Of a stretch of 64,000 bases of DNA, positions 13,234-60,254 are shown one piece after another. The DNA is taken from assembly GCA_045648765.1 (NCBI GenBank), contig JAZROQ010000003.1:2965-66964 (forward strand), written 5' to 3'. The position numbers and the translations under genes were made by a program. The stretch comes from Acutalibacteraceae bacterium (GTDB lineage: Bacteria; Bacillota; Clostridia; Oscillospirales; Acutalibacteraceae). Positions within the stretch are counted from its first letter, which is position 1. The number at the start of each line of letters is the position of its first letter. The notes under the pieces were generated by a model. It was not told the DNA's origin, made no database searches, and saw only the letters and a list, made by a program, of their open reading frames with translations.

Positions 13234-13274
13234 AAATAGCACCAAAAAACCAATTTCTTGATTTTTAAAAGCTT

Positions 13275-13372
13275 CGACTTTGTCCTTTTGCCTGAGAGAT
13301 TCGGCGTTAAAAAAAACACCTTGCACCTTCGGCACTCATTTAAGAGATTCTCCAGAGTCCCCTCCGCCTTCA
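13275..13372 (-). ncRNA. Glycine riboswitch aptamer (apparently a single aptamer)
   Basis: The minus strand reads GGCGGAGGGGACTCTGGAGAATCTC...GTGCCGAAGGTGCAAGG...CGCCGAATCTCTCAGGCAAAAGGACAAAG. The CTCTGGAGA, CCGAAGGxGCAA and CTCAGGCAAAAGGAC cores are the conserved glycine-aptamer blocks. Confidence 0.8.
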
Positions 13373-28807: not shown

Positions 28808-29420
28808 TGTTTTGCTCCTCCGAAAAAGCCGCAAGTGCGCGGCGCACTGTATCGTGCGAAAAACCATAGCGTGCCATTGCGGCAGCTGCACGGTCATCGC
28901 CAACAGTATACCGTTTTTTGCGCAAAAATTCAAGTGCCAGTTGCCAATCTTCTTTTTCGATCGTTTTTACGGCTTCGGCGGCAATGTCGCGGGCAATCCC
29001 TTTTTCGCAAAGTGCTTGTTCGGCGCGGCGGTGCGGGTAGCATTTTTCCAAACAAAAACGACGTGCCAACCGCTCGGCATACGCTTTGTCGTTAACGTAG
29101 CCGTATTCTTCCATGGCAGCGGCGGCTTGCCTTGCCGCTTCGCGGTTGTCGACAACAAAACGCCCACCCTCGCGGCACAAGCGTTGTTCCAGCTCTTTGC
29201 GGGAATAATCGCGCTTCGAAAGCAAAAAAATCGCTTTGTTGCGTGCCCGCCGTTTTTGGGAGGCGGCTACCAATTCTTCTATCTGTAAACGCGACAAAGA
29301 GGAACCCACCCCAAAGGGGGATTCCTCCCAAAGTCCTTTATCGATTACCGTTTCTTCACCGTTGTCAAACAAAAGTGTCACACGGCTTTGTCGCGCGGGT
29401 TTTACCGCGGTAATAATCAT
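28800..29420 (-). CDS. recX: Recombination regulator RecX
   Basis: 206 aa, three-repeat helical protein (...[16 protein letters not shown]...). ATGA overlap with the recA stop. Confidence 0.8.
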
Positions 29421-30562
29421 TCGTCGTCCACCACAATGTCAATTTTGGCACGTGCGGTATTGGCGGTGTATTGCGCCGCCGCACTAATCGGAATTTCCAC
29501 CGGTGCTGCGGCGGGTTGCACCGCTTCGTCACCTTTGTTTTGGATGGCAGCCAACACTTTTGCTTCGATTTCGGCAGCAAGTTCCGTGTCGCGTTCCAAA
29601 AATTCTTTTACGTTGTCGCGGCCTTGACCCAAGCGTTCCTCGTTGTACGAGAACCACGAACCCGATTTTTGAATAATTTCCAATTTAATGGCCAAATCCA
29701 ACAATTCGCCCATGCGCGAAATGCCTTTGCCGTACATGACGTCAAATTCGGCTTCTTTAAACGGCGGGGCCACTTTGTTTTTCACCACGCGAACGCGGGT
29801 GTGCGAACCGACGGGTTCACCCGCCACTTTCAGCGTTTCGGCACGGCGCACGTCCAAGCGCACCGAAGCATAATATTTCAGCGCGTTACCGCCGGCAGTA
29901 ACTTCGGGGTTGCCGTAAACCACGCCGACTTTCAAGCGCAATTGGTTGATAAACACGGCAACACAACCGGTTTTGCCCACGGCGCCTGCGAGTTTACGCA
30001 TGGCTTGCGACATAAGACGAGCTTGCAAACCCACGTGCGAATCGCCCATTTCGCCTTCGATTTCTTGACGGGGTACCAACGCGGCAACCGAGTCGATAAC
30101 CACCATGTCAATGGCGCCCGAACGAATGAGTGCCTCGGCAATTTCCAGCGCTTGTTCGCCGGTGTCGGGTTGCGAAACCAACAACGAGTCGACATCGACA
30201 CCCAGTGCACGAGCATACACAGGATCTAACGCGTGTTCCACGTCGATATAAGCGGCTTCGCCACCTTGCTTTTGCGTTTGCGCCACGGCGTGCAAAGCAA
30301 GCGTGGTTTTACCCGAAGCTTCGGGACCGTAAATTTCGACAATACGGCCGCGGGGGAAACCGCCCACGCCGAGTGCCAAATCCAACGTCAGCGAACCGGT
30401 GGGGATAACCTCTACGTTCATGCCGGCGTTTTCGCCCAAACGCATGACTGCGCCTTTACCGTAATTTTTTTCAATTTGTGCCAGTGCCGCTGCCAAAGCT
30501 TTTTGTTTGCTTTCGGAAGCTGCTGCCGGTTTATCGGTCAATTTTTTCTTTGCGTCTGCCAT
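29417..30562 (-). CDS. recA: Recombinase RecA
   Basis: [17 protein letters not shown] (Walker A), [11 protein letters not shown] and [36 protein letters not shown] trimmed the start to the ATG at 30562, which has an AGAGGAG RBS. Confidence 0.95.
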
Positions 30563-30616
30563 GCGAATCTCCTCTTTCTGTCCCGCCAAAAGGCGTTTTC
30601 TACGATTACAACACCT

Positions 30617-30645
30617 ATTGTACCGCATTCTTTTTCAGAAATCAA
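30617..30645 (-). promoter_or_regulatory. Putative recA promoter (TTGATT-17-TACAAT)
   Basis: On the minus strand the -35 lies at 30645-30640 and the -10 at 30622-30617, with a 17-nt spacer. Confidence 0.55.
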
Positions 30646-30731: not shown

Positions 30732-32741
30732 TTATACTCTGTTTTTAAGGATTTTGTAATAAACACTCTTTAGTTGGCAGCGTTCCAAAACGTCGCGTTC
30801 TTCCAAACGGACGTCGTGGGCGCCGGGGTGAACAACAGGGGTATAATGCAGCACCGCTTGTTGACACGCGGCATCTAATTTTTCCCAAATTTCTTCGTAG
30901 CCTTCGCCGCGGTACCATGCATTGCGGTATTGCAAGAACAGTACCAGCAATTCCATGGAATCAATACCGTATTTGAGCAGGCGCATATCTTCTTCTAACC
31001 GTTCCACATATTCACCCGCCAAGGCATAGCGCGTATCCAGCGGGTTAACGGCAAATCCCGGTACCAACACAACGTTTTTGCTGTGATGGATTAGTTGTTC
31101 GCGATGTACTCGTTTGAAAATCTCAAATGCTTCGCGCAACAATGCCAAAATTTCGTCGCCGCGTTTTTCGGCATTGCCCGCCAAGTGGTCGTCTTCTTTT
31201 AGCGGAGCGGTGGGTTTGTCGCCGTTCCAGCCGTATTGCAGTTGCATCAACACGCAATCCATGTTCCAGTTACGCCAACTGCTGATGTCGGCAAATGCCG
31301 ATTCGATCAAATCGTATGCTTTGCGAATCTCGTCGGCAGAATCGCCGTAACGGTCTTTATAATATTGTGTAATATAGGCGTCAACATCGGTGTTAATATC
31401 CCACGAAAGTTGCGCATATAACAGTTGGGTGATGTTGCGCACACCCCATTCCAGCATGGGCAGGTGCATATACGTCATGCCCGTAACGCCTTGTTTGTGA
31501 TAATACTTAATATCGTTACCAATGGTGCGGTTGAACAACAGCGGCAGATCTTCGAACTTGGAAACATTGTAATATTCGCCCATCATAATCGGAATATCGT
31601 GCCAACCCTCGAGCGCTTCGCGGAAACGATTGTTTTGTGCACAAGTCGGGTCATAGAATTGGTGCTCATAGCAACGATAGATGGGGTAATAGGTGATGCT
31701 GTCGCCCGAGTTGCGCAAGTTTTCGGGAATACCGTTAACCGGCGGTTGCAACGTGGCAGTACCCTCGTAGGCGCACATGCTGTATTTTACATCGTGGTCC
31801 AAGCGGCCTTCGGCAATGGCTTTGTCGGTGTAGTCGCGCAAGAAGGACAAGAAGTGAAGCATGGTATCACTGCCGTTACCGCGCGCTTTGCACGCGTCGC
31901 ATTGGCAGCATTTGCCCCAAGTATCAAAGCCCCACACGTCGATACGGTCGGCATCGTACCAGTCGGTGGTGGCACGGCGCAACACTTCCTCCGAAAGGAA
32001 GGTGAGCAATTCCTCGTTCGAGGTGCAAAATTGCGTGTTGAGCGCTTTGGATTTGTCGTCGGTGCCGTACCATTCGGGATGTGCTTCCCACAATGTACGG
32101 CCGTCTTTGGTGTAGTTATCGGGTTTTAATACCGCCTCGAAAATGTGACCGCCGTTTTTGAAAATCATGCCTAATTTCTTTTGGAATTTATGGGTATAAG
32201 GGCGGTAAGTGGCTAAGTTTAAGCGGTTACGCGCCATCCACAACCACAAACGCGGCGTATCTTTAAGCGGACCCTCAAAGTCAAAACCGCGAGCGAGCGG
32301 CATGGAGGGGGAATGACTCGATTCAGCGGTGGGAAGAACGAGGGGGGCACCCGGTGCGGGGACAATATCTTCGTTGGGGTTAAGCCAACGAATGCCCTGC
32401 ATGCGCAAAATCTCATACGCGCCGTACAGTGTGCCCACGCGGGTGGCGCCGCGCACCAAAACGCCATCTTTGGTGGGGGTAAGCACAAAATCGCACGCGT
32501 CGCCTTGTTCGCTGTCGACAGCCAACACAATGTTTTGTGCGCCTTCAACAACCGCATCGGCAAACGATACGTCGAACTGCAATTTTTTAAGATACGTTTC
32601 CAGCTCCGTTGCGGCAAACGAAACGGTACACCGCGTAGCGCGTGCATGGTCGCGGCGAAAATCAATGCTTTCTTCTTCCACCGCCCAAGCGTGTACGTTT
32701 TTTTCGACATCCGTATACGGAATCACAATGACAACAGACAT
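30732..32741 (-). CDS. Putative glycoside-hydrolase-like protein (DUF4838-like)
   Basis: 669 aa with an AAGGAGG RBS at the ATG at 32741. The N-terminal region ...RVGTLYGAYEILRMQGIRWLNPNE... resembles the GH20/GH67-type N-domain architecture as I recall it for DUF4838. I saw no signal peptide. Confidence 0.45.
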   Translation of the reverse strand: MSVVIVIPYTDVEKNVHAWAVEEESIDFRRDHARATRCTVSFAATELETYLKKLQFDVSFADAVVEGAQNIVLAVDSEQGDACDFVLTPTKDGVLVRGATRVGTLYGAYEILRMQGIRWLNPNEDIVPAPGAPLVLPTAESSHSPSMPLARGFDFEGPLKDTPRLWLWMARNRLNLATYRPYTHKFQKKLGMIFKNGGHIFEAVLKPDNYTKDGRTLWEAHPEWYGTDDKSKALNTQFCTSNEELLTFLSEEVLRRATTDWYDADRIDVWGFDTWGKCCQCDACKARGNGSDTMLHFLSFLRDYTDKAIAEGRLDHDVKYSMCAYEGTATLQPPVNGIPENLRNSGDSITYYPIYRCYEHQFYDPTCAQNNRFREALEGWHDIPIMMGEYYNVSKFEDLPLLFNRTIGNDIKYYHKQGVTGMTYMHLPMLEWGVRNITQLLYAQLSWDINTDVDAYITQYYKDRYGDSADEIRKAYDLIESAFADISSWRNWNMDCVLMQLQYGWNGDKPTAPLKEDDHLAGNAEKRGDEILALLREAFEIFKRVHREQLIHHSKNVVLVPGFAVNPLDTRYALAGEYVERLEEDMRLLKYGIDSMELLVLFLQYRNAWYRGEGYEEIWEKLDAACQQAVLHYTPVVHPGAHDVRLEERDVLERCQLKSVYYKILKNRV

Positions 32742-32885
32742 ACAGTAAACCTCCTTTTTACGGTTACAATGCCAATATACCACAATAATCTTCAAAATCA
32801 TAGCCCATTCTTGCTAAAAAATTGCAAAATCTTGCTGTTGAATTCCGGCACAAAATAAAAATCTTATTTTTTTGAAAAAACATGC

Positions 32886-32955: not shown

Positions 32956-33032
32956 GGCTGTATAGCTCAGTTGGCTAGAGCACGCGGTTCATACCCGCGG
33001 TGTCACTGGTTCAAATCCAGTTACAGCCACCA
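32956..33032 (+). tRNA. tRNA-Met (CAT), elongator type
   Basis: Acceptor GGCTGTA/TACAGCC, anticodon arm CGCGG-TTCATAC-CCGCG, CCA encoded. G1-C72 rules out an initiator. An Ile2-lysidine tRNA is not excluded. Confidence 0.85.
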
Positions 33033-33036
33033 ACAT

Positions 33037-33111
33037 GGCCCGATGGTCAAGCGGTTAAGACACCGCCCTTTCACGGCGGTAACACGGGTTCGATTCCCGT
33101 TCGGGTCACCA
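33037..33111 (+). tRNA. tRNA-Glu (TTC)
   Basis: GGCCCGATGGTCAAGCGGTTAAGAC..., anticodon arm CCGCC-CTTTCAC-GGCGG, CCA encoded. It starts 4 nt after tRNA-Met. Confidence 0.9.
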
Positions 33112-33149
33112 TTTTTCTTTTTGGTCGTTGCAGCAGCGACGGCTGATTC

Positions 33150-33226
33150 GGGCGTATAGCTCAGCTGGTTAGAGCGCCTGCTTCACACGCAGGAGGTCAG
33201 CGGTTCGAGTCCGTTTACGCCCACCA
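33150..33226 (+). tRNA. tRNA-Val (CAC)
   Basis: Acceptor GGGCGTA/TACGCCC, anticodon arm CCTGC-TTCACAC-GCAGG, CCA encoded. Confidence 0.9.
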
Positions 33227-37424: not shown

Positions 37425-40400
37425 ATGAGAAAAACAACACGAACACCCGCACGGATGCTAGCCTGCTGTCTTTCGATAGCATTGCTGCTTTCATGTTGCC
37501 TTTCGGGATTGGCATTGCCGGTGGCGGCGTCACCGACAGAACCTGAAATTCCTTCGGTAAACCTGTTTCCCAACGGTGATTTGGAAGGAACGCCGATCGG
37601 CAACGGATGGACCTCTTCGGTTTCGGCAATCAATGCTGCTGCCGGTTTTGGCGGTGGCAGTGCCTTTGAAGTGTACGGCAAAGACGGCGGTTCCAACTAT
37701 GTTCAATTGAGAAATATTACTCTGCCTCAACCGCTCAAAGCGGGGAAAACATACGTATTCCGCTATAAGCTATACGGCGGACAAGGTTTCTTTTGGTGGA
37801 GTGATTCTTCAACGTTGTCGGCGGACATTAACTGCAAACAAGCTCTTACCAAAAATGCGACCGAATGGACGCAAGTTCAGGTGAGTTTCTCTCCCAAAGC
37901 GGATATGTCGGTTATCAACGGTTTGCATGTGTATAACAGTAACAAAACCACCGACAGTGTGTTTTATGACGATTTTGAAATTGTGGAATATGTACCCGGT
38001 ATGAACTTTGTGACCGGCAGCGATGGCTCGGTGTTGCCGATGTCGACTAACGCCGCGTACGCCAGAAACATATTTTATAATTACGCCGCAAACATAAGCC
38101 TTGCCAATGACAACGGCAACGACGTGTGGCGTTTTTCGGGATTGACCGCTAATTATCATTCGGCACACCTGCATTTAGATGCCTTAAAACCGCCGACGGT
38201 GGCAGGTGATGAAATTGCTTTTTCGTTCCGCTACAAAACGGCAGCGGGTAATGCAACCATCACTTCCTCTGATGGCAGTTTAACCAATGTGAAAACGGTT
38301 AACGATCCTAATAACGAGGGATGGAAGATCTTTTCGGCAAAAGCTACCGTAACCTCTTTTACGTGGATATATTGTTTGGTTTTTTCCGGCACGACGGAAG
38401 TACTTATCGATGATTTTTATATCGGCCAAACCACCGCGGTGGATATTACCGATTCTGCTGTTAAAGTCGCGGCGAAGGAGTCGGTCGATTTGGCATATAC
38501 CGTGAAACCTGCCATTAACGCTGTGACGTGGTCTTCATCGGACGAAGCAGTTGCCACAGTGGATGCCGACGGAACGGTTACCGGTGTGGTACCCGGCACG
38601 GCTACGATTACCGCAACACTCCCCGACGGGAAAACCGACACGTGCGAAGTAACGGTAACGCGCCCTGTTGTGCGCAACGAGTTTTTCCCGGGCGGCGATA
38701 TGGAGGGAACGCCTGTCGGCAGCGGTTGGGAAACAGCAAGTTCCACCGTGAATGCCACGGCGGGATTCGGCGGCGGTAAAGCGTGGGAACTTTTTGGTGC
38801 AGTAGATGCTGCCAAGAGCGTGCAATTAACTAATGTCACCTTAACACAACCACTCAAAGCAGGAAAAACTTACCTTTTCCGTTATAAAGTGTACGGCGGA
38901 AACGGTTACATGTGGTGGAGCGACAGTACGACCTTGCCTGCCTCGTATAACTTCTATTCCGCGGCCGCAAAACCTGCCGACGAGTGGGTGGAAGCACAAC
39001 TGGTCTTTACGCCGTCTGCCGATATGTCGGCTATCAAAGGGTTGTATGTTTATAACACGAATAAAGACGGTACCAGTGTGTATTTTGACGATTTTGCCAT
39101 CGTGGAATACCGCCCCGGCATGAACACCATACCCGGTGAAGACGGCTCGGCGTTGCCACTTACGGCGGCCAGCTCGGTGCTCAGCAAATTTACCGTGAAT
39201 TTGGCGCAAGACGGCGAAAATACCGTTTGGAAATTCTCGGGATTGGATGCAACAGACAAATATTTGTTGTTAGGTCATATTGCCCCCATGGTAACAGCAG
39301 GGGATAAGTTGACGGTTTCCTTCCGTTACAAAGGTGTGGATGCAGATGCCACGGTGTCGATGACCAGCGGCAGTCTTGCCAACGCCATTATCAGTCATAA
39401 CACGTCTACGGTTCCGGATGCAGAGGGATACCGCACATATAGCGCTGTAATAACGATGCCGAGCGTTAACCTTAACTGGTCGGCACGGCTTAGATTTAGC
39501 GGCGCTACCGAAGTGTATGTCGATGATTTTTACGTAGCGGAAAGCACGGGCTTGGAAGTTTCTGATTTGACGGTAGCTTCGGGTGCCGCGCAAGTGTTGA
39601 CCGGCGCACAAGTTCCGGTGTCGGTCAAGGTTACGAACCCCCGTGCGGAAGATATCGACCAAGATGTCATGGTGGATGTACGGATTTCCAACGGCGAAAC
39701 CGATATCAAACTGGCAACTTTAACGGTTCAAGGCGGTTTACAAGCAGGGGCACAAACGGTGTTGTCTGTCCCTGCTCCGTGGACGGCGTTGGAAGGCGAA
39801 TGGGTGGTTTCTGCTCATGCCTATACCTTGTTGGCGGCAGAAGAACGAAACGGAACCCAAACCAACCTCCGCGTAGCGGATGCACTTTTGGATGCACCTG
39901 CTTTGGCTCAAGCAAGTGGATATAACAAGTTGATATTCAGCGATGATTTTGCCACCGCTAATGTGGATACCGCCTATACCGGCAATTACGGTTACAAATG
40001 GTATTTGACCGATTTGACAGGTGTCGCGGGTGATGCCTCCGACTATACACTTACTGACGACGGAATCCTTTTGGCTGCTGATAATATGCGCTACAACTGG
40101 CTGCTCTGCACCATGGATGGCAGAACCGCTGCCGGTTGGCGCGGATTTACTCACGGTTATTTGGAATTCCGCACACGGTTTAATCACAACAAAGATGCCG
40201 ATGCTCCTGCCGGCGTCAAAGGTCCCGCTGTTTGGTCGTTCCCGCCCGAAACCATCTCTTCGGCTGCCGGCACCTTAGACCGTCACATCGAAATGGACTG
40301 GATGGAATATTGGGGCGACGCCTATGGGGATATGTATTGGACCGTTACCATGCACGACCAAATTAATCCCAGCGGCACACAGCATATCAACAACGGCAAA

Positions 40401-41660
40401 TCCTACGGCGTTCACGGCGATAAATTTGACATTGGCGACGGCGAGTGGCATACGGTAAGCTATTCGTGGAGCGAAGGCGTTTTGGTAGCCTATGTTGACG
40501 GCGTACAATGTTTCAGTCAAACGTGGAGCCAAGACGGCAGCGAAACGTATCCGGCAACAACAGTCCGAACCGGCGAAGCTCGCGCAGATGCTCTTTCGCC
40601 GCTCGATAGTCAGCTTTCTCCGCTTATTCTTGCCGGTTCAAAAGGCTGGCCGCTCGAAATTGACTATATCCGCGTATGGCAAGCCGACGGACAAGCGGCA
40701 AGCGTAATTCCTCAGGCAGATGAAAACACGGTGGTTTCGTCTATGACATGGGCTCATAACGCTTCGCGTGTTCTTCCGATTGCCGACGAGGCATCTGTTA
40801 TGTGGCATTCCGGTAATCCTTCGGTTGCTACCGTGGGGAACGGAAAAGTGACAGCTCATCACAGCGGTCAAGCGGTCATATCGGCGTATACGGAAGATGC
40901 CTTGCTGGCGCAGTACACGCTTACCGTGGATCGTTTTGGCGAAAGATTGCCCATTGGTGATTTTGAATCGTCGGATGATGCCAACGATAAAACGTGGTAT
41001 CATGGCTCTGCCAACTATACCATTATCGGCGAAGGCAAAGGTTCGGTTGTTACCGAACCCGACGGTAACCGCGCTTTGGCCATGCCGGCAGGAGCGTTTG
41101 GTTATCTCTATCAAGCCAATATCGAACCCGGCAAAACGTATCGTTTTTCGGGACGTGTCAAAGGCTCGGTCGGCGCAAACTTGGTACAGTTTTATACGCT
41201 GCCGTTGTACGACGGAACAGCCGTGACAAAACAACCAACCGCGGGTCATGCTGAGGATGAATGGGTGGAATTCTCATACACCTTTACCACCTATAACGTG
41301 GTTAACGGAGCCTATTCATGCGAAAGAAATTATAGCATGATTTTACGTAACAGCGGTACAACGACTGCCTATTTCGACAACTTGTCGTTGGTAGAAACCG
41401 ATGGATACGTTATCCAGGGTGTCGGCAAAAAACTGTCATCGAGCAGCAGCAATTTAGGGTTGCTCAACGGTTGTTTCCCAACGTTGGATAAAACGCAATA
41501 TACCTTTACTTTGACAGCGGAAAACACCGCGGTGTTCGCGCAAACTTCCGCCTCGGTACTCACCGCTATCGCACCGGGTACCACCAACGTTACCGTGACG
41601 GCGACTCCTGTTGACGGCAGTGCGCCGCTGACGGCAACCGTCAAAGTGACAGTCGAATAA
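37425..41660 (+). CDS. Secreted multidomain carbohydrate-active protein: signal peptide, duplicated CBM-like modules, Big_2 domains, a CARDB-like domain and a GH16-like (concanavalin-type glucanase) catalytic domain
   Basis: 1411 aa. The signal peptide is MRKTTRTPARMLACCLSIALLLSCCLSGLALPVAASP. A Big_2-like stretch reads VTWSSSDEAVATVDADGTVTGVVPGTATITA. The GH16-like blocks are GPAVWSFPPE, HIEMDWMEYWG (ExDxxE at 40289-40306), EWHTVSYSWSEGVLVAYVDG and LEIDYIRVWQ. Confidence 0.75.
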   Translation: MRKTTRTPARMLACCLSIALLLSCCLSGLALPVAASPTEPEIPSVNLFPNGDLEGTPIGNGWTSSVSAINAAAGFGGGSAFEVYGKDGGSNYVQLRNITLPQPLKAGKTYVFRYKLYGGQGFFWWSDSSTLSADINCKQALTKNATEWTQVQVSFSPKADMSVINGLHVYNSNKTTDSVFYDDFEIVEYVPGMNFVTGSDGSVLPMSTNAAYARNIFYNYAANISLANDNGNDVWRFSGLTANYHSAHLHLDALKPPTVAGDEIAFSFRYKTAAGNATITSSDGSLTNVKTVNDPNNEGWKIFSAKATVTSFTWIYCLVFSGTTEVLIDDFYIGQTTAVDITDSAVKVAAKESVDLAYTVKPAINAVTWSSSDEAVATVDADGTVTGVVPGTATITATLPDGKTDTCEVTVTRPVVRNEFFPGGDMEGTPVGSGWETASSTVNATAGFGGGKAWELFGAVDAAKSVQLTNVTLTQPLKAGKTYLFRYKVYGGNGYMWWSDSTTLPASYNFYSAAAKPADEWVEAQLVFTPSADMSAIKGLYVYNTNKDGTSVYFDDFAIVEYRPGMNTIPGEDGSALPLTAASSVLSKFTVNLAQDGENTVWKFSGLDATDKYLLLGHIAPMVTAGDKLTVSFRYKGVDADATVSMTSGSLANAIISHNTSTVPDAEGYRTYSAVITMPSVNLNWSARLRFSGATEVYVDDFYVAESTGLEVSDLTVASGAAQVLTGAQVPVSVKVTNPRAEDIDQDVMVDVRISNGETDIKLATLTVQGGLQAGAQTVLSVPAPWTALEGEWVVSAHAYTLLAAEERNGTQTNLRVADALLDAPALAQASGYNKLIFSDDFATANVDTAYTGNYGYKWYLTDLTGVAGDASDYTLTDDGILLAADNMRYNWLLCTMDGRTAAGWRGFTHGYLEFRTRFNHNKDADAPAGVKGPAVWSFPPETISSAAGTLDRHIEMDWMEYWGDAYGDMYWTVTMHDQINPSGTQHINNGKSYGVHGDKFDIGDGEWHTVSYSWSEGVLVAYVDGVQCFSQTWSQDGSETYPATTVRTGEARADALSPLDSQLSPLILAGSKGWPLEIDYIRVWQADGQAASVIPQADENTVVSSMTWAHNASRVLPIADEASVMWHSGNPSVATVGNGKVTAHHSGQAVISAYTEDALLAQYTLTVDRFGERLPIGDFESSDDANDKTWYHGSANYTIIGEGKGSVVTEPDGNRALAMPAGAFGYLYQANIEPGKTYRFSGRVKGSVGANLVQFYTLPLYDGTAVTKQPTAGHAEDEWVEFSYTFTTYNVVNGAYSCERNYSMILRNSGTTTAYFDNLSLVETDGYVIQGVGKKLSSSSSNLGLLNGCFPTLDKTQYTFTLTAENTAVFAQTSASVLTAIAPGTTNVTVTATPVDGSAPLTATVKVTVE

Positions 41661-52201: not shown

Positions 52202-52228
52202 AAAGCGGCCCTTCGGGGTCGCTTTTTT
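52202..52228 (+). terminator. Terminator after the PHP gene
   Basis: AAAGCGGCCC-TTCG-GGGTCGCTTT followed by a T-run. Confidence 0.7.
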
Positions 52229-52325
52229 GCTATCCAAAACCTACCACAAGGCAAGAGGGTTGTATCTTTTTGAAAAGTGTGTTATACTGTCCTATATATT
52301 GCTTACAAAAAAAGGGGGATTTACC

Positions 52326-53456
52326 GTGATATATTTGGATAACAGCGCGACCACAGCGGTTTCGCCGTCGGTGGCACAAGCTATGGTCGAAGTCATGACA
52401 AATAACTACGGCAATCCTTCCTCGTTGCATACGCTGGGTGTCGAAGCCGAAACCGCCGTCACGGCCGCGCGGGGTGCTGTTGCCAAACTCGTTGGCGCGG
52501 CGGCAGACCAAATCGTTTTTACCGGCAGCGGCACCGAAGCCAACAATCTGGCAATTTTGGGTGGCGCGGCAGCCAAAAACCGCCGTCCGCACGTGGCAGT
52601 CACCACTGCGGTGGAACATCCGTCGGTGGCGGCGTGTTTTGACGAACTCGAAAAACAAGGTTGGTCGGTTATCCGCCTTATTCCTAATGAAAATGGCATT
52701 GTCACCCCCGAACAAGTGGCAAATGCTTGCAGTGCCGATACCACCTTGGTCAGCATTATGGCAGTTAATAACGAAACGGGCGCTCGGTTCGACATTCCTG
52801 CCATGGTTGCAAGCGTTAAACGCATTGCTCCCGAAGCACTGTTCCATACCGACTGTGTGCAAGCAGCGGGCAAACTGCCCTTGTTTGCCGAACGGTGGGG
52901 CGTGGATCTTATGTCGGTCAGCGGCCACAAATTGCATGGGCCCAAAGGGGTAGGGGCGCTGTATATTCGCAAAGGTGTCCGTTTGTTGCCCCGCACCCTC
53001 GGCGGTGGGCAAGAACGTGGCTTGCGCTCGGGCACCGAACCGGTTCCCGCCATTGTCGGTTTTGGCACTGCGGCGGCAGAAGTGGCACCGTTTGCCGAAC
53101 AAGAAAAACACTATACCGCCTTGCGTGAAGAATTGCTTGAACAACTCAAAGCATTGCCCGATGTGCGGTTGCATTTGCCCGCAAGCGCTGTGCCGTACAT
53201 TGTCAATTTTTCACTTGTGGGTTTTCGCAGTGAAACGCTGGTGCACTTTTTGGCATCGCACGGGATTTTTGTTTCGGGCGGGTCGGCGTGTTCCAAAGGC
53301 AAACATAGCCCTGTGCTAACCGCTTTGGGGTTGCCCGAACGCGAAATCGACAGTTCACTGCGCATCAGTTTTTCCTATCACACCACAAAACAGGAGATAC
53401 ACGCCTTGGCAGATGCTTTAAAGCAAGCCACTGCCACGTTACAAAGGAGAAAATAA
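52326..53456 (+). CDS. nifS: Cysteine desulfurase (NifS/NifZ/IscS class V aminotransferase)
   Basis: GTG start after an AAAGGGGGA RBS. VIYLDNSATT, GNPSSLH, SGHKLHGPKGVGALY (PLP Lys) and SGGSACS (catalytic Cys). Confidence 0.9.
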   Translation: MIYLDNSATTAVSPSVAQAMVEVMTNNYGNPSSLHTLGVEAETAVTAARGAVAKLVGAAADQIVFTGSGTEANNLAILGGAAAKNRRPHVAVTTAVEHPSVAACFDELEKQGWSVIRLIPNENGIVTPEQVANACSADTTLVSIMAVNNETGARFDIPAMVASVKRIAPEALFHTDCVQAAGKLPLFAERWGVDLMSVSGHKLHGPKGVGALYIRKGVRLLPRTLGGGQERGLRSGTEPVPAIVGFGTAAAEVAPFAEQEKHYTALREELLEQLKALPDVRLHLPASAVPYIVNFSLVGFRSETLVHFLASHGIFVSGGSACSKGKHSPVLTALGLPEREIDSSLRISFSYHTTKQEIHALADALKQATATLQRRK

Positions 53457-53460
53457 ACGG

Positions 53461-54453
53461 ATGAACAAATTTTTCTCGTTTTTAAAGACGATTATCCCCA
53501 TCAAAGGCGACAGCAAACGCGAATGGATTCGCAAACTTTCGTTTTTGTTGGCACTTTTTGTGTTTATCGGTTGCGCGGGGTATTTGGTTGACGATTTGTT
53601 GTTGCAACCTTACAGCACCCAAAAAATCACACAACAAGCGCAAGATTGGTACCACACCGAGCCGGATAACACGCCGCAAACACCCGAAGAAGAGGATACA
53701 ACGGTGGTTTACCCTGAAGAACTGGACGAATCGTTTTATGCGTTGTACCGTCGCAATCAAGATATCAAAGCGTGGCTCACATTTGCCACCACGGGCGAAG
53801 ACTTGTTCAACGGTGCCATCGATAACCCCGTGGTACAATCGGCCGATAACGATTTTTATCTAAACCGAAACTATCTCAAAGAACCCGAAAAAGCAGGGAC
53901 GTTGTATTTTGACTATCGCAACGATTTGTCGGTGGGTGCTCAAAACCGCAACTTGATTATTTACGGTCATAACCTTCCCAGCGGTCTGATGTTTTCGCGT
54001 TTTAACTTGCTTGCCAAAGGCAACGTGGATTATGCGCGCCGCTTGACCACGCTCACGCTGGATACGTGGTATGGGGAACAACGGACATACAAAGTGTTTG
54101 CGGTTATGATTATCAACGCCGAAAACAAAGAAGAAAAAATGTTCAACTACCTGCGCACCCAATTTACCGACGACTCGTTTTTGGAATTTACCGACCAAAT
54201 TCGCCGTCGCTCGCTGTTTGATTTTGGTGACGTCGATATTCAAAAAACCGACGAAATTATCACGCTTTCCACTTGCTCCAACAAACGAGAAACCAAACTC
54301 ACCGATGCGCGCACCGTCATTGTGGCGCGCCGCGTGCGCGAGGGGGAAGACCCCGCAGTAGATACCACCAAAACGGTTGCCAACACAGACGTGCTAATGC
54401 CGAAAATGTGGTACATCGCGTCTAAAAAAGAATTACCCGAAGAATATCGTTGA
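53461..54453 (+). CDS. Class B sortase-like transpeptidase (TM-anchored)
   Basis: N-terminal TM helix, NQDIKAWLTF...DNPVVQSADNDFYLNRNY, IIYGHNL (catalytic His), ITLSTCS (catalytic Cys) and IVARRV (Arg). Confidence 0.75.
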   Translation: MNKFFSFLKTIIPIKGDSKREWIRKLSFLLALFVFIGCAGYLVDDLLLQPYSTQKITQQAQDWYHTEPDNTPQTPEEEDTTVVYPEELDESFYALYRRNQDIKAWLTFATTGEDLFNGAIDNPVVQSADNDFYLNRNYLKEPEKAGTLYFDYRNDLSVGAQNRNLIIYGHNLPSGLMFSRFNLLAKGNVDYARRLTTLTLDTWYGEQRTYKVFAVMIINAENKEEKMFNYLRTQFTDDSFLEFTDQIRRRSLFDFGDVDIQKTDEIITLSTCSNKRETKLTDARTVIVARRVREGEDPAVDTTKTVANTDVLMPKMWYIASKKELPEEYR

Positions 54454-54483: not shown

Positions 54484-54658
54484 GCGATATAAATTCCTAA
54501 CGGAATTTGCGATATATACTCCGTATGCGATATATCTTCGATGCGATATGTCCCTTCGGGACACGGATAGGAATTTATATTATATCGCAACGAACGAAGT
54601 GAAGTTATATCGCATTTGGTAAACAAATATATCGCACGAGCAAAGCGAGTATATCGCA
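54484..54658. repeat. Array of eight 9-bp motifs: 4 x TGCGATAT(A) followed by 4 x TATATCGCA
   Basis: GCGATAT starts at 54484, 54509, 54527 and 54543. ATATCGC starts at 54582, 54607, 54629 and 54651 (spacing 25/22/22). The centre is the GTCCCTTCGGGAC hairpin at 54550-54562. Confidence 0.8.
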
Positions 54659-54672
54659 AAAGGAGACAAAAA

Positions 54673-55020
54673 ATGGCAGAAAAAACGATTAAGGAAATGG
54701 CAGTGGAATTAACCGTTGAAATAACCGCTATATGTGACGATATTAAAGGACGAACTGTTTTTGTGAATCAATTATTACGTTCTTGTTCTTCAATAGGCGC
54801 AAATTCGCACGAAGCAAAATATGCTCAAAGTAAGTTGGATTTTATCAGTAAAATGGAAATTGCATTAAAAGAGTGTTATGAAACCGAATATTGGTTTGAA
54901 ATACTTTTCAAAATCAACAGTATTGATGAAACCACCTATAAAAAGCTTTTGAATACATGCGGCACTATACGAAGAAAGCTCATCGCTTCTATTACTACTG
55001 TTAAGGGAAAAAACAGTTGA
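54673..55020 (+). CDS. Four-helix-bundle protein (23S rRNA intervening-sequence protein family)
   Basis: VNQLLRSCSSIGANSHEAKYAQSKLDFISKMEIALKECYETEYWFEIL is the family signature (IGANI.EA....S..DF..K...A..E..ET.YW). AAAGGAGA RBS. Confidence 0.8.
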   Translation: MAEKTIKEMAVELTVEITAICDDIKGRTVFVNQLLRSCSSIGANSHEAKYAQSKLDFISKMEIALKECYETEYWFEILFKINSIDETTYKKLLNTCGTIRRKLIASITTVKGKNS

Positions 55021-55046
55021 GTTAAAAGTGTTAGGATAATTGCCAA

Positions 55047-55382
55047 ATGAAACACAACATGAAACTAAACCCCGTTCCGTTCGAAAGGATTAAGAGCGGA
55101 GAAAAAACAATCGAAATTCGTTTGTTTGATGAAAAACGTCAGCAAATCAAAGCAGGGGATAAAATTGTTTTCACCAATAATACTTCCGGTGAAACCTTGG
55201 ATACATTGGTTGTGAAATTGCATCGCTTTGAGAGTTTCGAAGAATTATATAAATCGTTACCTCTTCTAAAATGTGGATATACAACTGAAAATGTTGACAA
55301 AGCAAAACCATCTGATATGGAACAATATTATTCTTTGGAAGAGCAGAACAAATACGGTGTTGTTGGTATTGAACTTTGTTGA
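55047..55382 (+). CDS. ASCH (PUA-like) domain protein
   Basis: 111 aa. MKLNPVPFERIKSGEKTIEIRLFDEKRQQIKAGDKIVF is typical of ASCH N-termini. Confidence 0.7.
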   Translation: MKHNMKLNPVPFERIKSGEKTIEIRLFDEKRQQIKAGDKIVFTNNTSGETLDTLVVKLHRFESFEELYKSLPLLKCGYTTENVDKAKPSDMEQYYSLEEQNKYGVVGIELC

Positions 55383-55412: not shown

Positions 55413-56579
55413 ATGAACGAAATCATTCTGATTAAAAACGGCGAACTGGCGCTCAAAGGCTTAAACCGCAGTACGTTCGAAGAAGTGTTGCTCAAAAATT
55501 TGCGTCACCGTTTACGCACGGTGGGGAATTTCACGTTGCGCAAAGCGCAATCCACCGTATATATCGAACCGCGCGACGAAGTAACCGATTGGGATACCGT
55601 CAGCGACCAAGTTGCCAAGGTGTTTGGCATTTCCGCCTTTTCCCGCGCCTGTGTGGTCGAAAAGGATTTAGAAGCCATCAAATCCGCCGCGGCGGAATAT
55701 TTGGCGCCGTCGCTGCAAATGGCGCGCACGTTCAAAGTGGAGGCCAAACGCGCCGACAAACAATTCCCCCTGACTTCTCCGCAAATTTGCGCCGAAGTGG
55801 GCGGTGCTGTATTGAGTGCGTTCCCGCACTTGACCGTAGACGTTCATAACCCCGAAGTGACCGTTTGGGTAGAAGTTCGCGATTTTGGCGCCTACATTCA
55901 CGGCCCGCAACAACAAGGTGCGGGCGGTATGCCGGTGGGCACGGGCGGAAAAGCCGCCATTTTGATTTCGGGCGGTATCGATTCACCTGTTGCCGCCTAT
56001 ATGATGGCCAAACGCGGTATTTCACTTTTTGGTGTTCACTTTGCTTCACCGCCCTATACCAGCGAACGCGCCGAAATGAAGGTGGTTTCGCTGCTCGAAA
56101 AAGTCAGTGAATACGCGGGGCACATGTCACTTGCCATTGTCCCGTTTACCCATATTCAAGAAGAAATCGGAAAACATTGCCCCGAAGAACTGTTCACCTT
56201 GGTTATGCGCCGTTTTATGATGCGCATTGCCACGCGCTTGGCACAAGAAAACGAGTGTTCGGCACTTGTTACGGGCGAAAGCGTGGGACAAGTTGCCAGT
56301 CAAACGCTTCCGGCACTGGTTTGTACCGATGCGGTAGCCGATCTGCCTGTTTTGCGACCTGTGATCGGTATGGACAAAGAAGAAATCATCGCCATTTCGC
56401 GGCGCATCGACACGTTTGATATTTCCATTCAACCGTACGAAGATTGTTGCACTGTGTTTACCCCGCGTCATCCGCGTACCCGCCCCCGTATCGAAGAACT
56501 CGAAGCGGCGGAATCGTTGTTAGCGGTAGACGAACTCATCGAAGAAGCCGTTGCCGGCGTACGGTATCGGAAAATCTGA
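55413..56579 (+). CDS. thiI: tRNA 4-thiouridine(8) synthase ThiI (no rhodanese domain)
   Basis: THUMP N-terminal region and the PP-loop LISGGIDSPVAAYMM. 388 aa. Confidence 0.92.
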   Translation: MNEIILIKNGELALKGLNRSTFEEVLLKNLRHRLRTVGNFTLRKAQSTVYIEPRDEVTDWDTVSDQVAKVFGISAFSRACVVEKDLEAIKSAAAEYLAPSLQMARTFKVEAKRADKQFPLTSPQICAEVGGAVLSAFPHLTVDVHNPEVTVWVEVRDFGAYIHGPQQQGAGGMPVGTGGKAAILISGGIDSPVAAYMMAKRGISLFGVHFASPPYTSERAEMKVVSLLEKVSEYAGHMSLAIVPFTHIQEEIGKHCPEELFTLVMRRFMMRIATRLAQENECSALVTGESVGQVASQTLPALVCTDAVADLPVLRPVIGMDKEEIIAISRRIDTFDISIQPYEDCCTVFTPRHPRTRPRIEELEAAESLLAVDELIEEAVAGVRYRKI

Positions 56580-56595
56580 TAAGGTGGTGAAAACC

Positions 56596-59500
56596 ATGAA
56601 TGCGGAGATCATTTCGGTAGGAACAGAATTGCTTTTGGGGGATATTCTCAACTCCAACAGCCAATTTTTGTCACAAGAACTTGCCGCTTACGGCATTGAT
56701 ATTTTGTATCAATCCACCGTGGGCGACAACAAACAACGCTTGGAACAAACCTTAAAAACGGCGCTTTCGCGTTGCGATATGGTCATTCTCACGGGGGGAC
56801 TCGGTCCCACCGAAGACGATATCACGCGCGAAGTGGCGGCAGAAGTGTTGGGTTTGCCGCTCGAACTGCACGAAGAAAGTTTGGGGCGTATTCAAGAATA
56901 TTTTGCCAGTACCGGCAAAGAATACACCGAAAATAACCGCAAACAAGCTCTTTTACCCAAAGATTGCATCGTATTGCCCAACGACCGCGGCACTGCCCCC
57001 GGTTGTGTCATGCAACAAGAGGGCAAACACGTCATTTTATTGCCCGGTCCGCCGTATGAACTGACGTTAATGTTCACCGAATACGTGGCGCCGTATTTGT
57101 CGCAATGTTCGGGCGGCACGATTTATTCGCATATTGTGGGTGTGTTCGGCATTGCCGAATCTGCCATTGGGGAACGTTTGCAAGATTTGATGGCAAACAG
57201 CAATCCCACCGTGGCACCCTATGCCAAAGAAGGCGAAGTAATCATTCGCGTGACCGCCAAAGCCGCCACTAAAGAAGAGGCAGACGCCATGTGCGAACCC
57301 ATCATCGCAGAAATCTGCGAACGGTTGGGCAATGCCGTTTATGGCGTCGATGCAGGCAATCTGTCCAAACGCGTGGTCACCTTGCTTTCTGAAAATAATA
57401 TGAAAATAGCCACCGCCGAGTCGTGCACTGCGGGTATTCTTTCGGGCAAACTTACCGAAGTTTCGGGTGCTTCGCGCGTGTTCGAGTGTGGTGTTGCCGC
57501 CTATTCCAAAGAAATCAAACACCAAGTTTTGGGTGTAGATGAAGTGATTTTGGAAGAAAAAGGCGCCGTTTCTCCCGAAACGGCGGGTGCCATGGCAAAC
57601 GGTGCGCGCTTGGTGGGGAACGCCGATATCGGTGTGGGTATCACCGGTGTAGCAGGGCCCGAAACCAGCGAAGGCAAAGCCGTTGGCACGGTGTACGTTG
57701 CTTTGGCAGACGAAAAGCGGGTATGGGTCAAAAAGATTTTGGCAGGTCACAACGATGAAGACCGCGAACATATCCGCCACATTGCCACTTCGTATGCACT
57801 GGATATGACACGTCGTTATTTGGAAGCGTTGCCCGGTGTGATGGCGGGCGGACAGTTGTGGGAACAATTACCGCCTGTAGAAGCCACCCTCACCCCCGAA
57901 ATAGCCAAAGCCAAACGTCGGGCACGGTTGTGGCGTTGGTTATCGGCTTTGGTGATGTTGTTGGTTGCGGCAGCCGTTTTGTTCTATACATATTGGTATA
58001 TTCCTTATCGCAATCAAAAACGATTTGACGAACTGTACGCACAATATACCGACAGTCAACCGGTCAGTACGCCGTCTGTCAGTTACCCTGCGGGGATATT
58101 AAAACAATTTATGTCGTTGTATCAAACCAACGACGATATTTGCGGCTGGATCACCGTGGCCGACACGCGTATCAATTACCCTGTCGTGGAAGAACCGTCG
58201 GAAGGGTTTTATCAAGAACACGACTTTGACGGCGTGGCATCACCCTATGGGGTGCCGTATGTCAAAGGCGGCGCCAAATGGGAAGCGGGGCTCACCCCGA
58301 AAACCGTTGCTGTTTTCGGCAATAATGCGGGTAACGATCAAATGTTTGCGCCGCTTACCAATTATACCAAAATCGAATTTTTGCGTAAGCACACCTTGCT
58401 GAACATGAGCACGCTGTACCAAGAAGGAACCTACAAAGTGTTTGCGGTGATGTTGGTGGACGACACCGACGAAGAGGAATTCGACTACGCCGCAACTGTG
58501 TTTGCCGATGAAGAAGAATTTTTGTATCACGTTACGCAAATTCGTATGCGTTCGTTGTTCGACACGCCCGTAGACGTGGTCGAAGGAGACAGTTTGTTAT
58601 TGCTCAGCACACCGATTGACTACGGATACGAAGGAGCACGTGTGGTAGTGGCGGCGCGCAAAGTACGCACGGGTGAAGTGCGTGAAAACGACCTTTCCAA
58701 AGCACGTGCCAACCGCAGTGTGCACATGCCCAAAGGTTGGGTGGAACAACACGGTTCCATAACTACAACGGTGCCGACCACCGTAACCGAAACCACCACC
58801 GTAACCGAAACCACCACCACCGAAACAACGGTAGCCACCACAACGACTACCAAAAAACCAACCACTACCACAAAACCAACCACAACGACAACTAAAAAAC
58901 CGACCACCACCACGGAAGCCACCACTGTCCCCACCACAACCACCACAAAGCCGGCAACGCCTTTGCCACCGGCAGGTGCGGTGTCGGGTACGGTGTCCGG
59001 CAGCATTGCCGAGCAAGAATTTTTGTCGCTTTTTGCGGTAAAAAACAGCGGCGTGCAAGATGCCGATTTGGCAGATTGCACCGATGAAAACGGTGTGATT
59101 CGTCCCAAAACCAAAGAACAACTGCAACGTGTGTTGACACATATTGTCAAAGTGGAACTCGGCTCTGCCAGCGCGATGGTCAACTCCACCGAAGCGCAAA
59201 AAGCGCAAGCGGTTGCCTCCTACACATACATTTTGCGTCATTGTGCGGGTGGTGCGGTATATCCCTATTCTTTCAAATCGCTGAGTCTTTCCAACAAAAC
59301 CGACAAAAAGATTTACGATGCCGTGGGCGATGTCGTCGGTGTGAAATTGCTCGATCTAAGCAAAACGAGTTTTTCGCAAATGTTGTGCTACACGCCATAT
59401 TCCGCGGCATCGGGCGGCTACACTTCTTCGTGCCATCGTGTGTGGACGTTAAATTTGCCGTATGTGCAAAGTGTGTTCAGCAAATACGACGATGCGCTGA

Positions 59501-60009
59501 CCTACGCCAAATACCGTGGCCCGGGTAGCTTTGTCAACACTGTCACCATCAAACGCGACCAATTGTATGACAAAGTGCAAAAATGGGTTGCGGCGCAAGA
59601 TAAAAATGCCACCATGCCGGAAGAACAGTTCACCACCGACAACGCGGTGTTGCCGCTTCGTGCGCTTTCCTACGACGGCGACGGCAGTGCGGGCAAGGGT
59701 GATGCATGGAATGTGGTTTATCAAACTAATTTCTATTATCTGGATGCAAGCGGCAAGAAAAAAGTGATAACCGGTCATCAAATGCGCAGCATTTTGGGGC
59801 TTCGTTCTCACGCCTTCCGCACTTCGTACGATGCAGCCACCCAAACGGTCACCATTACCACACAAGGCTATGGTCACGGCGTGGGGCTCAGCCAAATGGG
59901 CGCTGTTGGCTATGCCAACGAAGAAGGCTGGACTTACGTTCAAATTTTGCGGCATTATTACTCGGTCACCGAAAAAAGCGCTCATCAAGTTGTTTTGCCG
60001 AAATGGTAA
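56596..60009 (+). CDS. Fusion protein: CinA (MoCF/PncC-type), TM helix, degenerate sortase-B-like domain, Thr/Pro-rich linker, SpoIID/LytB domain
   Basis: A single 1137-codon ORF. CinA part: MNAEIISVGTELLLGDILNSNSQFL..., LTGGLGPTEDD and ATAESCTAGIL. TM helix: WLSALVMLLVAAAVLFYTYWYI. Sortase-like part: NDDICGWITVADTRINYPVVE...VFGNN...LLLSTP. SpoIID part: ...QGYGHGVGLSQMGAVGYA. Confidence 0.75.
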   Translation: MNAEIISVGTELLLGDILNSNSQFLSQELAAYGIDILYQSTVGDNKQRLEQTLKTALSRCDMVILTGGLGPTEDDITREVAAEVLGLPLELHEESLGRIQEYFASTGKEYTENNRKQALLPKDCIVLPNDRGTAPGCVMQQEGKHVILLPGPPYELTLMFTEYVAPYLSQCSGGTIYSHIVGVFGIAESAIGERLQDLMANSNPTVAPYAKEGEVIIRVTAKAATKEEADAMCEPIIAEICERLGNAVYGVDAGNLSKRVVTLLSENNMKIATAESCTAGILSGKLTEVSGASRVFECGVAAYSKEIKHQVLGVDEVILEEKGAVSPETAGAMANGARLVGNADIGVGITGVAGPETSEGKAVGTVYVALADEKRVWVKKILAGHNDEDREHIRHIATSYALDMTRRYLEALPGVMAGGQLWEQLPPVEATLTPEIAKAKRRARLWRWLSALVMLLVAAAVLFYTYWYIPYRNQKRFDELYAQYTDSQPVSTPSVSYPAGILKQFMSLYQTNDDICGWITVADTRINYPVVEEPSEGFYQEHDFDGVASPYGVPYVKGGAKWEAGLTPKTVAVFGNNAGNDQMFAPLTNYTKIEFLRKHTLLNMSTLYQEGTYKVFAVMLVDDTDEEEFDYAATVFADEEEFLYHVTQIRMRSLFDTPVDVVEGDSLLLLSTPIDYGYEGARVVVAARKVRTGEVRENDLSKARANRSVHMPKGWVEQHGSITTTVPTTVTETTTVTETTTTETTVATTTTTKKPTTTTKPTTTTTKKPTTTTEATTVPTTTTTKPATPLPPAGAVSGTVSGSIAEQEFLSLFAVKNSGVQDADLADCTDENGVIRPKTKEQLQRVLTHIVKVELGSASAMVNSTEAQKAQAVASYTYILRHCAGGAVYPYSFKSLSLSNKTDKKIYDAVGDVVGVKLLDLSKTSFSQMLCYTPYSAASGGYTSSCHRVWTLNLPYVQSVFSKYDDALTYAKYRGPGSFVNTVTIKRDQLYDKVQKWVAAQDKNATMPEEQFTTDNAVLPLRALSYDGDGSAGKGDAWNVVYQTNFYYLDASGKKKVITGHQMRSILGLRSHAFRTSYDAATQTVTITTQGYGHGVGLSQMGAVGYANEEGWTYVQILRHYYSVTEKSAHQVVLPKW
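58760..58978 (+). repeat. Thr-codon-rich imperfect tandem repeats encoding the linker of the fusion protein
   Basis: ACC/ACA/ACG runs and repeated ACCGTAACCGAAACCACCACC and AAAAAACC(A/G)ACCAC units. They translate to TTVTETTTVTETTTTETTVATTTTTKKPTTTTKPTTTTTKKPTTTTEATTVPTTTTTKP. Confidence 0.8.
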
Positions 60010-60017
60010 AAAAATAT

Positions 60018-60046
60018 TTGACAAACCAAAAATTGGGTGCTACAAT
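60018..60046 (+). promoter_or_regulatory. Near-consensus promoter TTGACA-17-TGcTACAAT for the aro operon leader
   Basis: TTGACA at 60018-60023 and TACAAT at 60041-60046, with TG at 60038-60039. Confidence 0.7.
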
Positions 60047-60065
60047 ACTTGACAAGGTGTTATTT

Positions 60066-60149
60066 ATGAAAACGATTATTTGTGCAGCTCAATACGTGTA
60101 TTACTTTTACTTTTTCAACAAAGGTAAGAGTGCTTTTTGCTGCCAATGA
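60066..60149 (+). CDS. Candidate leader peptide, 27 aa, Tyr/Phe-rich (MKTIICAAQYVYYFYFFNKGKSAFCCQ)
   Basis: ATG with AAGGTG 8 nt upstream. Codons 10-17 read Y V Y Y F Y F F. It sits between the promoter and an intrinsic terminator upstream of aroF-tyrA. Confidence 0.6.
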   Translation: MKTIICAAQYVYYFYFFNKGKSAFCCQ

Positions 60150-60186
60150 TTAAAAGACAAACAGGTCTTTTAACACTTGTCTTTAA

Positions 60187-60218
60187 CGACTCGCAGTGAA
60201 AAGCTGCGGGTCGTTTTT
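60187..60218 (+). terminator. Attenuator terminator in the aro leader
   Basis: CGACTCGCAG-TGAAAAG-CTGCGGGTCG (10 bp including one G-U) followed by TTTTTATTTT. It ends 37 nt before the aroF ATG. Confidence 0.7.
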
Positions 60219-60254
60219 ATTTTGTAGGCATAACAACCTAAGGAGGAAACCGTC

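Follow-up and report, generated by a model that had tools for sequence, protein, structure and literature searches.

The window analyzed here is a stretch of 64,000 nucleotides from an Acutalibacteraceae bacterium (GCA_045648765.1, contig JAZROQ010000003.1, positions 2,965 to 66,964 of the forward strand). On its + strand, the open reading frame at 56596..60009 encodes a fusion protein composed of CinA, one transmembrane helix, a class-B-sortase fold, a Thr-rich stalk, and a SpoIID/LytB domain, in that order. The fusion is a real and conserved protein of gut Oscillospirales that spans the membrane once, with its N-terminus inside and its C-terminus outside the cell. Its sortase domain is predicted, from its residues and their conservation, to be a maintained pseudoenzyme. 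With a probability of about 0.55, the protein would serve as a trans-membrane scaffold that places a glycan-cleaving domain beside a partner sortase, the stand-alone SrtB-like paralogue encoded nearby.

The initial annotation described one uninterrupted frame of 1137 codons, and the translation of this region is indeed stop-free, with 1137 residues plus a stop. A Shine-Dalgarno-like sequence, AAGGTGGTG, is located at 56581-56589, 6 nt before the ATG at 56596, and this ATG is 16 nt downstream of the thiI stop. The alignment to the CinA equivalog model begins at residue 1 of the fusion, which supports the annotated start.

Homologues were searched with the non-CinA part (residues 411-1137) as the query, and 120 were listed at 34-90% identity (best local alignment). 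Domain hidden Markov models (HMMs) place all three CinA domains ahead of the sortase-like and SpoIID domains in 118 of these 120 (length 937-1236 residues). When one genome per species was scanned, the sortase-like domain was detected in 46, every one an uncultured gut metagenome-assembled genome (MAG) with the label Acutalibacteraceae, Oscillospiraceae, Ruminococcaceae, or Clostridia. The complete five-domain protein is encoded in one frame at 33 of the 46 loci, and the fusion is cut only by a contig end at two more, so that 35 of the 46 species genomes carry the full single-frame fusion. Nine loci encode a short PncC-transmembrane-dead-sortase protein that has a Thr/Ser-rich tail and no MoCF or SpoIID domain (one of them, L033, has a weak KH remnant).

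Two loci depart from both forms. L010, from an Acutalibacteraceae MAG, has an in-frame TAA (9821-9823) in the variable linker just before the transmembrane helix, which splits CinA (443 codons) from the transmembrane, pseudo-sortase, and SpoIID part (717 codons). This downstream part is present in the database as a 709-residue protein (P0025), and the TAA could be a sequencing error, the mark of a pseudogene, or a tolerated natural split. L044 is the most divergent locus and encodes CinA as a separate gene; its order is nifS, thiI, complete cinA, an intact SrtB with a long acidic repeat N-terminus, and a 971-residue protein (L044 11027-13942) made up of a transmembrane helix, a dead sortase, and SpoIID. 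The N-terminal cytoplasmic domain of the 971-residue protein (~270 residues) has no Pfam hit, but hhalign matches it to the MoCF profile of CinA (87%, E=3.6e-6).

Loss of a stop codon, which the initial annotation had kept as an alternative, is rejected together with a frameshift artefact because the same single frame recurs in independent assemblies, namely in 118/120 close homologues and 35/46 species genomes. Most relatives keep the full fusion, and among the 46 loci only L010 shows an in-frame stop between CinA and the downstream part. An internal promoter or start near 57841 was considered as well. No promoter-like site was found on the coding strand near the CinA/transmembrane junction, and the candidate start codon, M416, has no upstream Shine-Dalgarno and is part of a motif conserved at the protein level. 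An assembly or sequencing artefact, or production of separate proteins only, can thus point to the linker stop of a single MAG and to the existence of the M416 codon, and against it stands the single frame in independent assemblies of dozens of species. This explanation is extremely improbable.

The topology follows from one segment. The single transmembrane helix (residues 448-469; 57937..58002, +) contains the sole hydrophobic 19-mer of the protein and is preceded by the basic cluster KAKRRARLWRW. Across the family, Lys plus Arg averages 4.7 on the N side of the helix vs. 1.8 on the C side, and the N side has more in 110/119 proteins. By this positive-inside pattern, CinA is predicted to be cytoplasmic and the pseudo-sortase and SpoIID/LytB domains extracytoplasmic, as the initial annotation had proposed. 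The end of the PncC domain and the linker to the helix are bridged by a juxtamembrane motif, RRYLEALPGVMAGG (residues 406-419; 57811..57852, +). Its positions are 58-98% conserved in 121 sequences; the RRYLEA, P413, and VMAGG positions are at 93-98%, and L412 and G414 are weaker at 58-62%. A related motif is also found in the short PncC-transmembrane-dead-sortase variants.

The two extracytoplasmic folds are separated by ~100-122 residues, in which Thr accounts for 44 of 122. By composition, this region contains a low-complexity Thr/Pro/Lys-rich stalk of ~75 residues (721-795; 58756..58980, +), in agreement with the linker described earlier. The family linker has a median of 140 residues (range 91-214) and is 47% Thr, Ser, or Pro.

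The N-terminal part is a full-length CinA/PncC-type protein of ~410 residues, as first described. It passes the curated CinA equivalog NF001813 (505.6 bits vs. a cutoff of 379, residues 1-410) and TIGR00200 (392 bits vs. 243), and it contains three Pfam domains. These are the N-terminal MoCF/COG1058 domain (residues 1-172; 56596..57111, +; PF00994 MoCF_biosynth, E=1.3e-37), the middle CinA_KH domain (176-252; 57121..57351, +; PF18146, E=2e-26), and the nicotinamide mononucleotide (NMN) deamidase domain PncC (255-410; 57358..57825, +; PF02464, E=2.3e-47). The COG1058 motif GGLGPTxDD is intact in the window protein (GGLGPTEDD), and its G/P/DD pattern is found in 85/118 family members. PncC residues S276, Y303, K308, and R390 correspond to S31, Y58, K63, and R145 of Agrobacterium tumefaciens CinA (AtCinA) with an offset of 245, and this tetrad is kept in 115/118 family members. 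Mutation of any one of the four abolishes AtCinA activity (PMC5384747). With its COG1058 motif, PncC Ser/Lys dyad, and substrate-binding Tyr and Arg, the CinA moiety looks catalytically competent.

The characterized CinA proteins of Thermus thermophilus (PMC4246079) and A. tumefaciens (2A9S, PMC5384747) have the same MoCF, KH, and PncC domains, and every residue shown to be needed for NMN deamidase activity is present in the fusion as well. CinA proteins known so far are soluble enzymes of the cytoplasm that stand alone and are often encoded beside recA, whereas this one is tethered to the membrane and to ~700 predicted extracytoplasmic residues and is not at recA. The CinA moiety is not a soluble stand-alone protein but continues into the transmembrane helix and ~670 further residues. 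In a 2013 survey of NMN deamidases, CinA was noted to be sometimes fused to additional domains, and such proteins were set aside (PMC3855486).

The recA gene of the window is located at 29417-30625 on the minus strand. Its neighbors are rimO, pgsA, and a gene for a ~688-residue protein without a family match; there is no cinA at this locus, which bears out the earlier observation. In many Firmicutes, cinA is directly upstream of recA. That position is occupied in the window by the ~689-residue open reading frame at 30732-32801 (-), which has no NCBIfam match.

The domain that follows the helix (residues 495-715; 58078..58740, +) has a class-B-sortase fold, identified by BLASTP, matches to the Protein Data Bank (PDB), and an AlphaFold2 model searched with Foldseek. 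Residues 411-720 of the fusion align to the product of 53461-54453 with 32% identity (BLASTP, E=3e-36), which upholds the claimed paralogy. The alignment pairs IIYGHN of the paralogue with AVFGNN of the fusion and TLSTC with LLSTP, exactly as stated in the initial annotation. N576 (58321-58323, +) thus stands in place of the catalytic His and P673 (58612-58614, +) in place of the catalytic Cys, while the catalytic Arg is retained as R682 (58639-58641, +), the equivalent of S. aureus R233. SrtB structures in the PDB match the fused domain at E ~1e-19. The AlphaFold2 model, which the initial annotation had proposed as a check, has a mean confidence (pLDDT) of 88.7, and its top 19 Foldseek matches are all class B sortases (template-modeling (TM) score 0.64-0.90), so the fold is SrtB-specific. 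TIGR03064, the SrtB equivalog, scores 99.6 bits over residues 452-685, below its cutoff of 153.75.

Loss of the catalytic center extends across the family. The His column contains Asn in 115/121 sequences and His in 0/121, and the Cys column contains Pro, Asp, Thr, Ser, or Asn, with Cys in 0/121; the catalytic Arg is kept in 112/121. At the 46 species loci, the His column of the fused copy is Asn in 46/46, and Cys is found in 0/46. Lacking both His and Cys, the domain cannot be a transpeptidase. When the window protein is compared pairwise with its two closest relatives, dN/dS (ω) comes to 0.02-0.06 in the CinA domains, 0.09-0.12 in the sortase-like domain, and 0.06-0.07 in the SpoIID domain. 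Every part has a low ω (0.02-0.12), which indicates purifying selection on all domains, the dead sortase included, and it is this selection that marks the sortase as a putative maintained pseudoenzyme.

Class B sortases of known structure include those of Staphylococcus aureus (1NG5/4LFD), Bacillus anthracis (2OQW), Clostridioides difficile (4UX7), and Clostridium perfringens (5B23). The fused domain shares their fold (TM score 0.75-0.9), their membrane-anchor topology, the GxNxxxGxMF and LxT motifs, and the catalytic Arg. It differs from them in having Asn and Pro in place of His and Cys, in its location between CinA and SpoIID, and in scoring below the SrtB equivalog cutoff.

The stand-alone SrtB-like paralogue (53461..54453, +) has an intact His, Cys, and Arg (IIYGHN, TLSTC, DARTV) and scores 132 on TIGR03064 (cutoff 153.75). 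It was first listed as a nearby gene; the paralogy stands, and the relationship is better described as that of a conserved operon partner than as mere proximity. It is located on the same strand beside the fusion in 42/46 loci, the other four being loci not read far enough upstream. His and Cys are intact in 41/42 of these paralogues and the catalytic Arg in 42/42. The only stand-alone copy of the 42 that apparently has no His and Cys (aligned Asn and Ile) is that of L033 (4775-6169).

A candidate SrtB substrate was observed in six related loci of one subclade only. It is a small secreted protein encoded just upstream of nifS on the minus strand (L019 3729-4232, L021 1878-2297, L022 273-746, L024 3341-3835, L026 2612-2977, and L028 3754-4158). 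Members carry a signal peptide, share a conserved GYW...YTYTE core, and contain a linker that is acidic or rich in Pro. Their C-terminal end, made up of a (S)NPLAG-like motif, a hydrophobic helix, and an ALYKAV tail, is reminiscent of sorting signals of the class B type. The window encodes no homologue of this NPLAG-tailed protein.

The wider family was examined by an exhaustive search of residues 439-1137 against 1.84 billion cluster representatives, which returned 329 at E<=1e-30. The best 150 of the 329 were annotated and consist of N-in/C-out proteins with a complete CinA, MoCF only, or PncC only, followed by a transmembrane helix and the SrtB fold, with or without SpoIID/LytB. The fused sortase keeps its His, Cys, and Arg in many members of this wider family. 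One intact-sortase cluster (306 members) includes a protein of 1304 residues from the cultured Anaerotruncus colihominis, WP_278668045.1, which is named only 'SpoIID/LytB domain-containing protein' in the database. It has the same order of parts as the window fusion and the same nifS-thiI neighborhood with an adjacent stand-alone sortase (nifS, thiI, fusion, stand-alone sortase). In the A. colihominis protein, the fused sortase is intact (YAHNM, LSTC) and the motifs of PncC and MoCF have decayed (ESGTGS; Ala at the R145 equivalent), the opposite of what is observed in the window fusion.

This opposition is found more widely. Among representatives having a PncC domain, the tetrad is intact in 19 and degenerate in 11 where the fused sortase is dead, and intact in 9 and degenerate in 29 where it is intact (Fisher p=0.0013, odds ratio 5.6, in a statistic that ignores kinship). 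Only two three-part representatives keep both the sortase and PncC centers. The Glu, His, and Gln positions of SpoIID are intact in 41/46 of each class, dead and intact sortase alike. In a neighbor-joining tree, which carries no support values, the dead fused domains all fall into a single clade, and the stand-alone SrtB of the window family falls among the intact sequences. The window fusion is thus placed by sequence as a dead-sortase branch that descended from an older CinA-transmembrane-SrtB-SpoIID/LytB family with an intact sortase. Simple subfunctionalization, in which a fused sortase would become inactive wherever it has a stand-alone neighbor, was rejected, as A. colihominis has an adjacent sortase and still an intact fused one. 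The retention of degenerate cytoplasmic domains, of which the MoCF-like N-terminus in L044 is an example, and the reciprocal decay of the sortase and PncC centers suggest that the physical assembly, beyond the individual chemistries, is under selection.

A rather unlikely alternative is that the fusion arose neutrally between operon neighbors, with the modules acting independently and CinA being an ordinary NAD-salvage enzyme that was tethered when adjacent genes fused. The separate cinA beside the sortase and SpoIID genes in L044, the split at a domain boundary in L010, and the short variants without SpoIID and MoCF (with KH only as the L033 remnant) are in keeping with this account. The PncC catalytic residues are conserved as in a housekeeping enzyme, and since no cinA is found beside recA, the fusion may be the only copy. 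On the other hand, the fusion persists over deep divergence (the 329 representatives), and many members keep a cytoplasmic CinA-derived domain. PncC and MoCF domains without catalytic motifs are retained rather than deleted, which argues for selection on the tethered domain itself. Neutral fusion is also at odds with the strong conservation of the juxtamembrane motif at most of its positions and with the non-random pattern of reciprocal decay.

The C-terminal SpoIID/LytB-type domain (folded from residue ~799, with an HMM core at 838-1137; 58990..60006, +) was assigned by TIGR02669, an AlphaFold2 model, and a profile match. TIGR02669 scores 91.7 bits vs. a cutoff of 83.3 (residues 864-1125). 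The model has a pLDDT of 96.1 and matches only SpoIID structures in Foldseek (E ~1e-14), and the family profile matches 5i1t, 5txu, and 4rwr over the whole domain (E 1e-45 to 1e-47). E854 (59155-59157, +) falls on residue 101 of 5txu_A, a full-length-numbered chain, in the profile alignment; E101 is the catalytic glutamate of C. difficile SpoIID (PMC6221140). E854 is invariant (121/121), and the SpoIID/LytB signature GxGHGxGxSQxGA is found in 120/121, in the window as GYGHGVGLSQMGA (residues 1091-1103, +). Profile searches, which the initial annotation had named as a check, therefore support the CinA, sortase-like, and SpoIID/LytB assignments alike. The domain shares its fold, catalytic Glu, and signature with SpoIID of C. 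difficile (5I1T/5TXU) and B. anthracis (4RWR). It differs in that the zinc-binding insert of C. difficile SpoIID is absent and in its placement: SpoIID directly follows an N-terminal anchor, whereas here a Thr-rich stalk carries the domain as the C-terminal part of a multidomain protein.

The domain class and the catalytic Glu given in the initial annotation are retained, whereas 'sporulation-type' overstates the case, as the spore_II_D equivalog TIGR02870 failed (78.1 bits vs. 234.75). It is very doubtful that the protein is this lineage's sporulation SpoIID, the engulfment lytic transglycosylase, with extra domains. Such a role would fit the SpoIID fold and its catalytic Glu, hosts from an order with many spore-formers, and an A. 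colihominis locus near ypeB and an FtsW/RodA/SpoVE-family gene. The failed equivalog speaks against it, as do the nine genomes whose protein has no SpoIID domain. By Pfam or HMM inspection, neither spoIIM nor spoIIP is encoded within 10 kb of any locus, and the operon partners, nifS and thiI, are housekeeping genes. Enzymes of the SpoIID family are also active outside sporulation, as reported for the chlamydial division septum (PMC6635528).

The scaffold reading put forward at the outset would work as follows. The stalked SpoIID-like domain would cut the wall's glycan strands. The sortase fold, being dead, would perform no transpeptidation and would instead bind or dock one of several ligands: a sorting-signal-like peptide, lipid II or a stem peptide, or the partner SrtB. 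In this way the glycan cutter would be kept at the site of protein attachment by the partner sortase. CinA, for its part, would continue its turnover of NMN and ADP-ribose and, as CinA is dimeric, would probably also dimerize or localize the complex at the membrane.

Several points weigh against this scaffold. No sortase substrate with a C-terminal sorting signal was found in the 64-kb window. The catalytic Arg is kept in only 36/82 members of the wider dead clade, which weakens the case for a general retention of peptide binding. The nine short forms have no SpoIID, so some lineages can do without the glycan-cleaving domain, and it cannot be all that the protein is for. The L010 split and the unfused cinA of L044 imply that physical linkage is not absolutely required. 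That the decay statistic takes no account of phylogeny and that the tree carries no support values count here as well, and the mechanistic steps beyond domain identity and residue conservation are ones that we infer.

It is also conceivable, though improbable, that the family is a trans-envelope coupling device in which signals pass through the one helix between a cytoplasmic NMN/ADP-ribose-binding domain and an extracytoplasmic sortase-fold domain. Under this reading, the cytoplasm's NAD or DNA-damage status would control the cutting of peptidoglycan and the anchoring of proteins, or control would run the other way, and the reciprocal conversion to pseudoenzymes would be one side becoming a ligand-sensing regulator of the other. 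CinA is among the most widespread 'competence/damage-inducible' proteins, and to our knowledge its cellular role beyond NMN and ADP-ribose turnover is unclear. If the coupling were real, it would provide a concrete membrane and cell-wall function for a protein whose competence role has stayed obscure.

No description of a CinA-sortase-SpoIID protein, or of a sortase and SpoIID combination, was found in the searchable literature, and the same search returned no earlier report of a pseudo- or inactive sortase domain. The sole overlap is a C. acetobutylicum paper that names a SpoIID-like protein as a questionable substrate of sortase. This agrees with the initial annotation, which was aware of no description of the architecture; it needs correction in that the architecture is not unique to this genome, with members in RefSeq and GenBank under generic names. 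All parts come from known families, and the architecture is already in databases under partial names and apparently undescribed, as far as we could find. Any one of the automatic names 'competence/damage-inducible protein A', 'class B sortase', and 'SpoIID/LytB domain-containing protein' conceals two-thirds of what the protein contains.

In abundant gut Clostridia, the family has tied CinA to the membrane and to a pair of cell-wall modules over deep evolutionary time, and the link is kept even where one enzyme has decayed. It offers a lead to a physical or functional connection of NAD-salvage chemistry with peptidoglycan remodeling or sorting. Two further leads are a sortase-fold pseudoenzyme under purifying selection that is paired with a putatively active paralogue and a predicted SpoIID-type lytic transglycosylase outside the canonical engulfment machine. 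Cultured A. colihominis, a carrier of the intact-sortase form, makes experiments feasible.

The fusion is the last gene of a block composed of nifS, srtB, thiI, and the fusion, which is found in every locus that extends far enough. In the window, the block begins with a nifS-like class-V aminotransferase/cysteine desulfurase (52227..53456, +), and thiI, encoding a tRNA 4-thiouridine synthase (55413..56579, +), comes immediately before the fusion, with 16 nt separating the two. The intergenic gaps of the block are very small. A 23S rRNA-intervening-sequence family gene and an ASCH-domain gene are located between srtB and thiI (54616-55382). This pair is present only in the window and in its closest relative, L001; elsewhere, srtB is followed directly by thiI, so the pair is a recent insertion into the block. 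Anti-phage defense was considered since CinA acts on NAD-derived nucleotides, and it was rejected because PADLOC returned no hits for the fusion, SrtB, the intervening-sequence protein, or the ASCH protein.

The best promoter-like site of the region (TTGACA, 17 nt, TACAAT with TG; 11/12) lies just past the fusion stop, within 60018-60254. A 13-bp GC-rich hairpin with a T-run follows at 60185-60215, immediately before a DAHP synthase gene (60255). The region looks like an attenuator-type leader of an aromatic amino-acid operon. Rfam assigned it to no family at threshold, the best weak matches being the PyrR and trpB motifs (E 0.04-0.14).

Other features of the window include a T-box leader (95.3 bits; 26652-26860, -) upstream of a cysteine-tRNA ligase gene (24583-26226, -) and a glycine riboswitch aptamer (56.8 bits; 13270-13365, -). 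An open reading frame of 1411 residues without an NCBIfam match is located at 37425-41660 (+). A cluster of three tRNA genes is found at 32956-33223 (+), and one further tRNA gene is at 5561-5643 (-).

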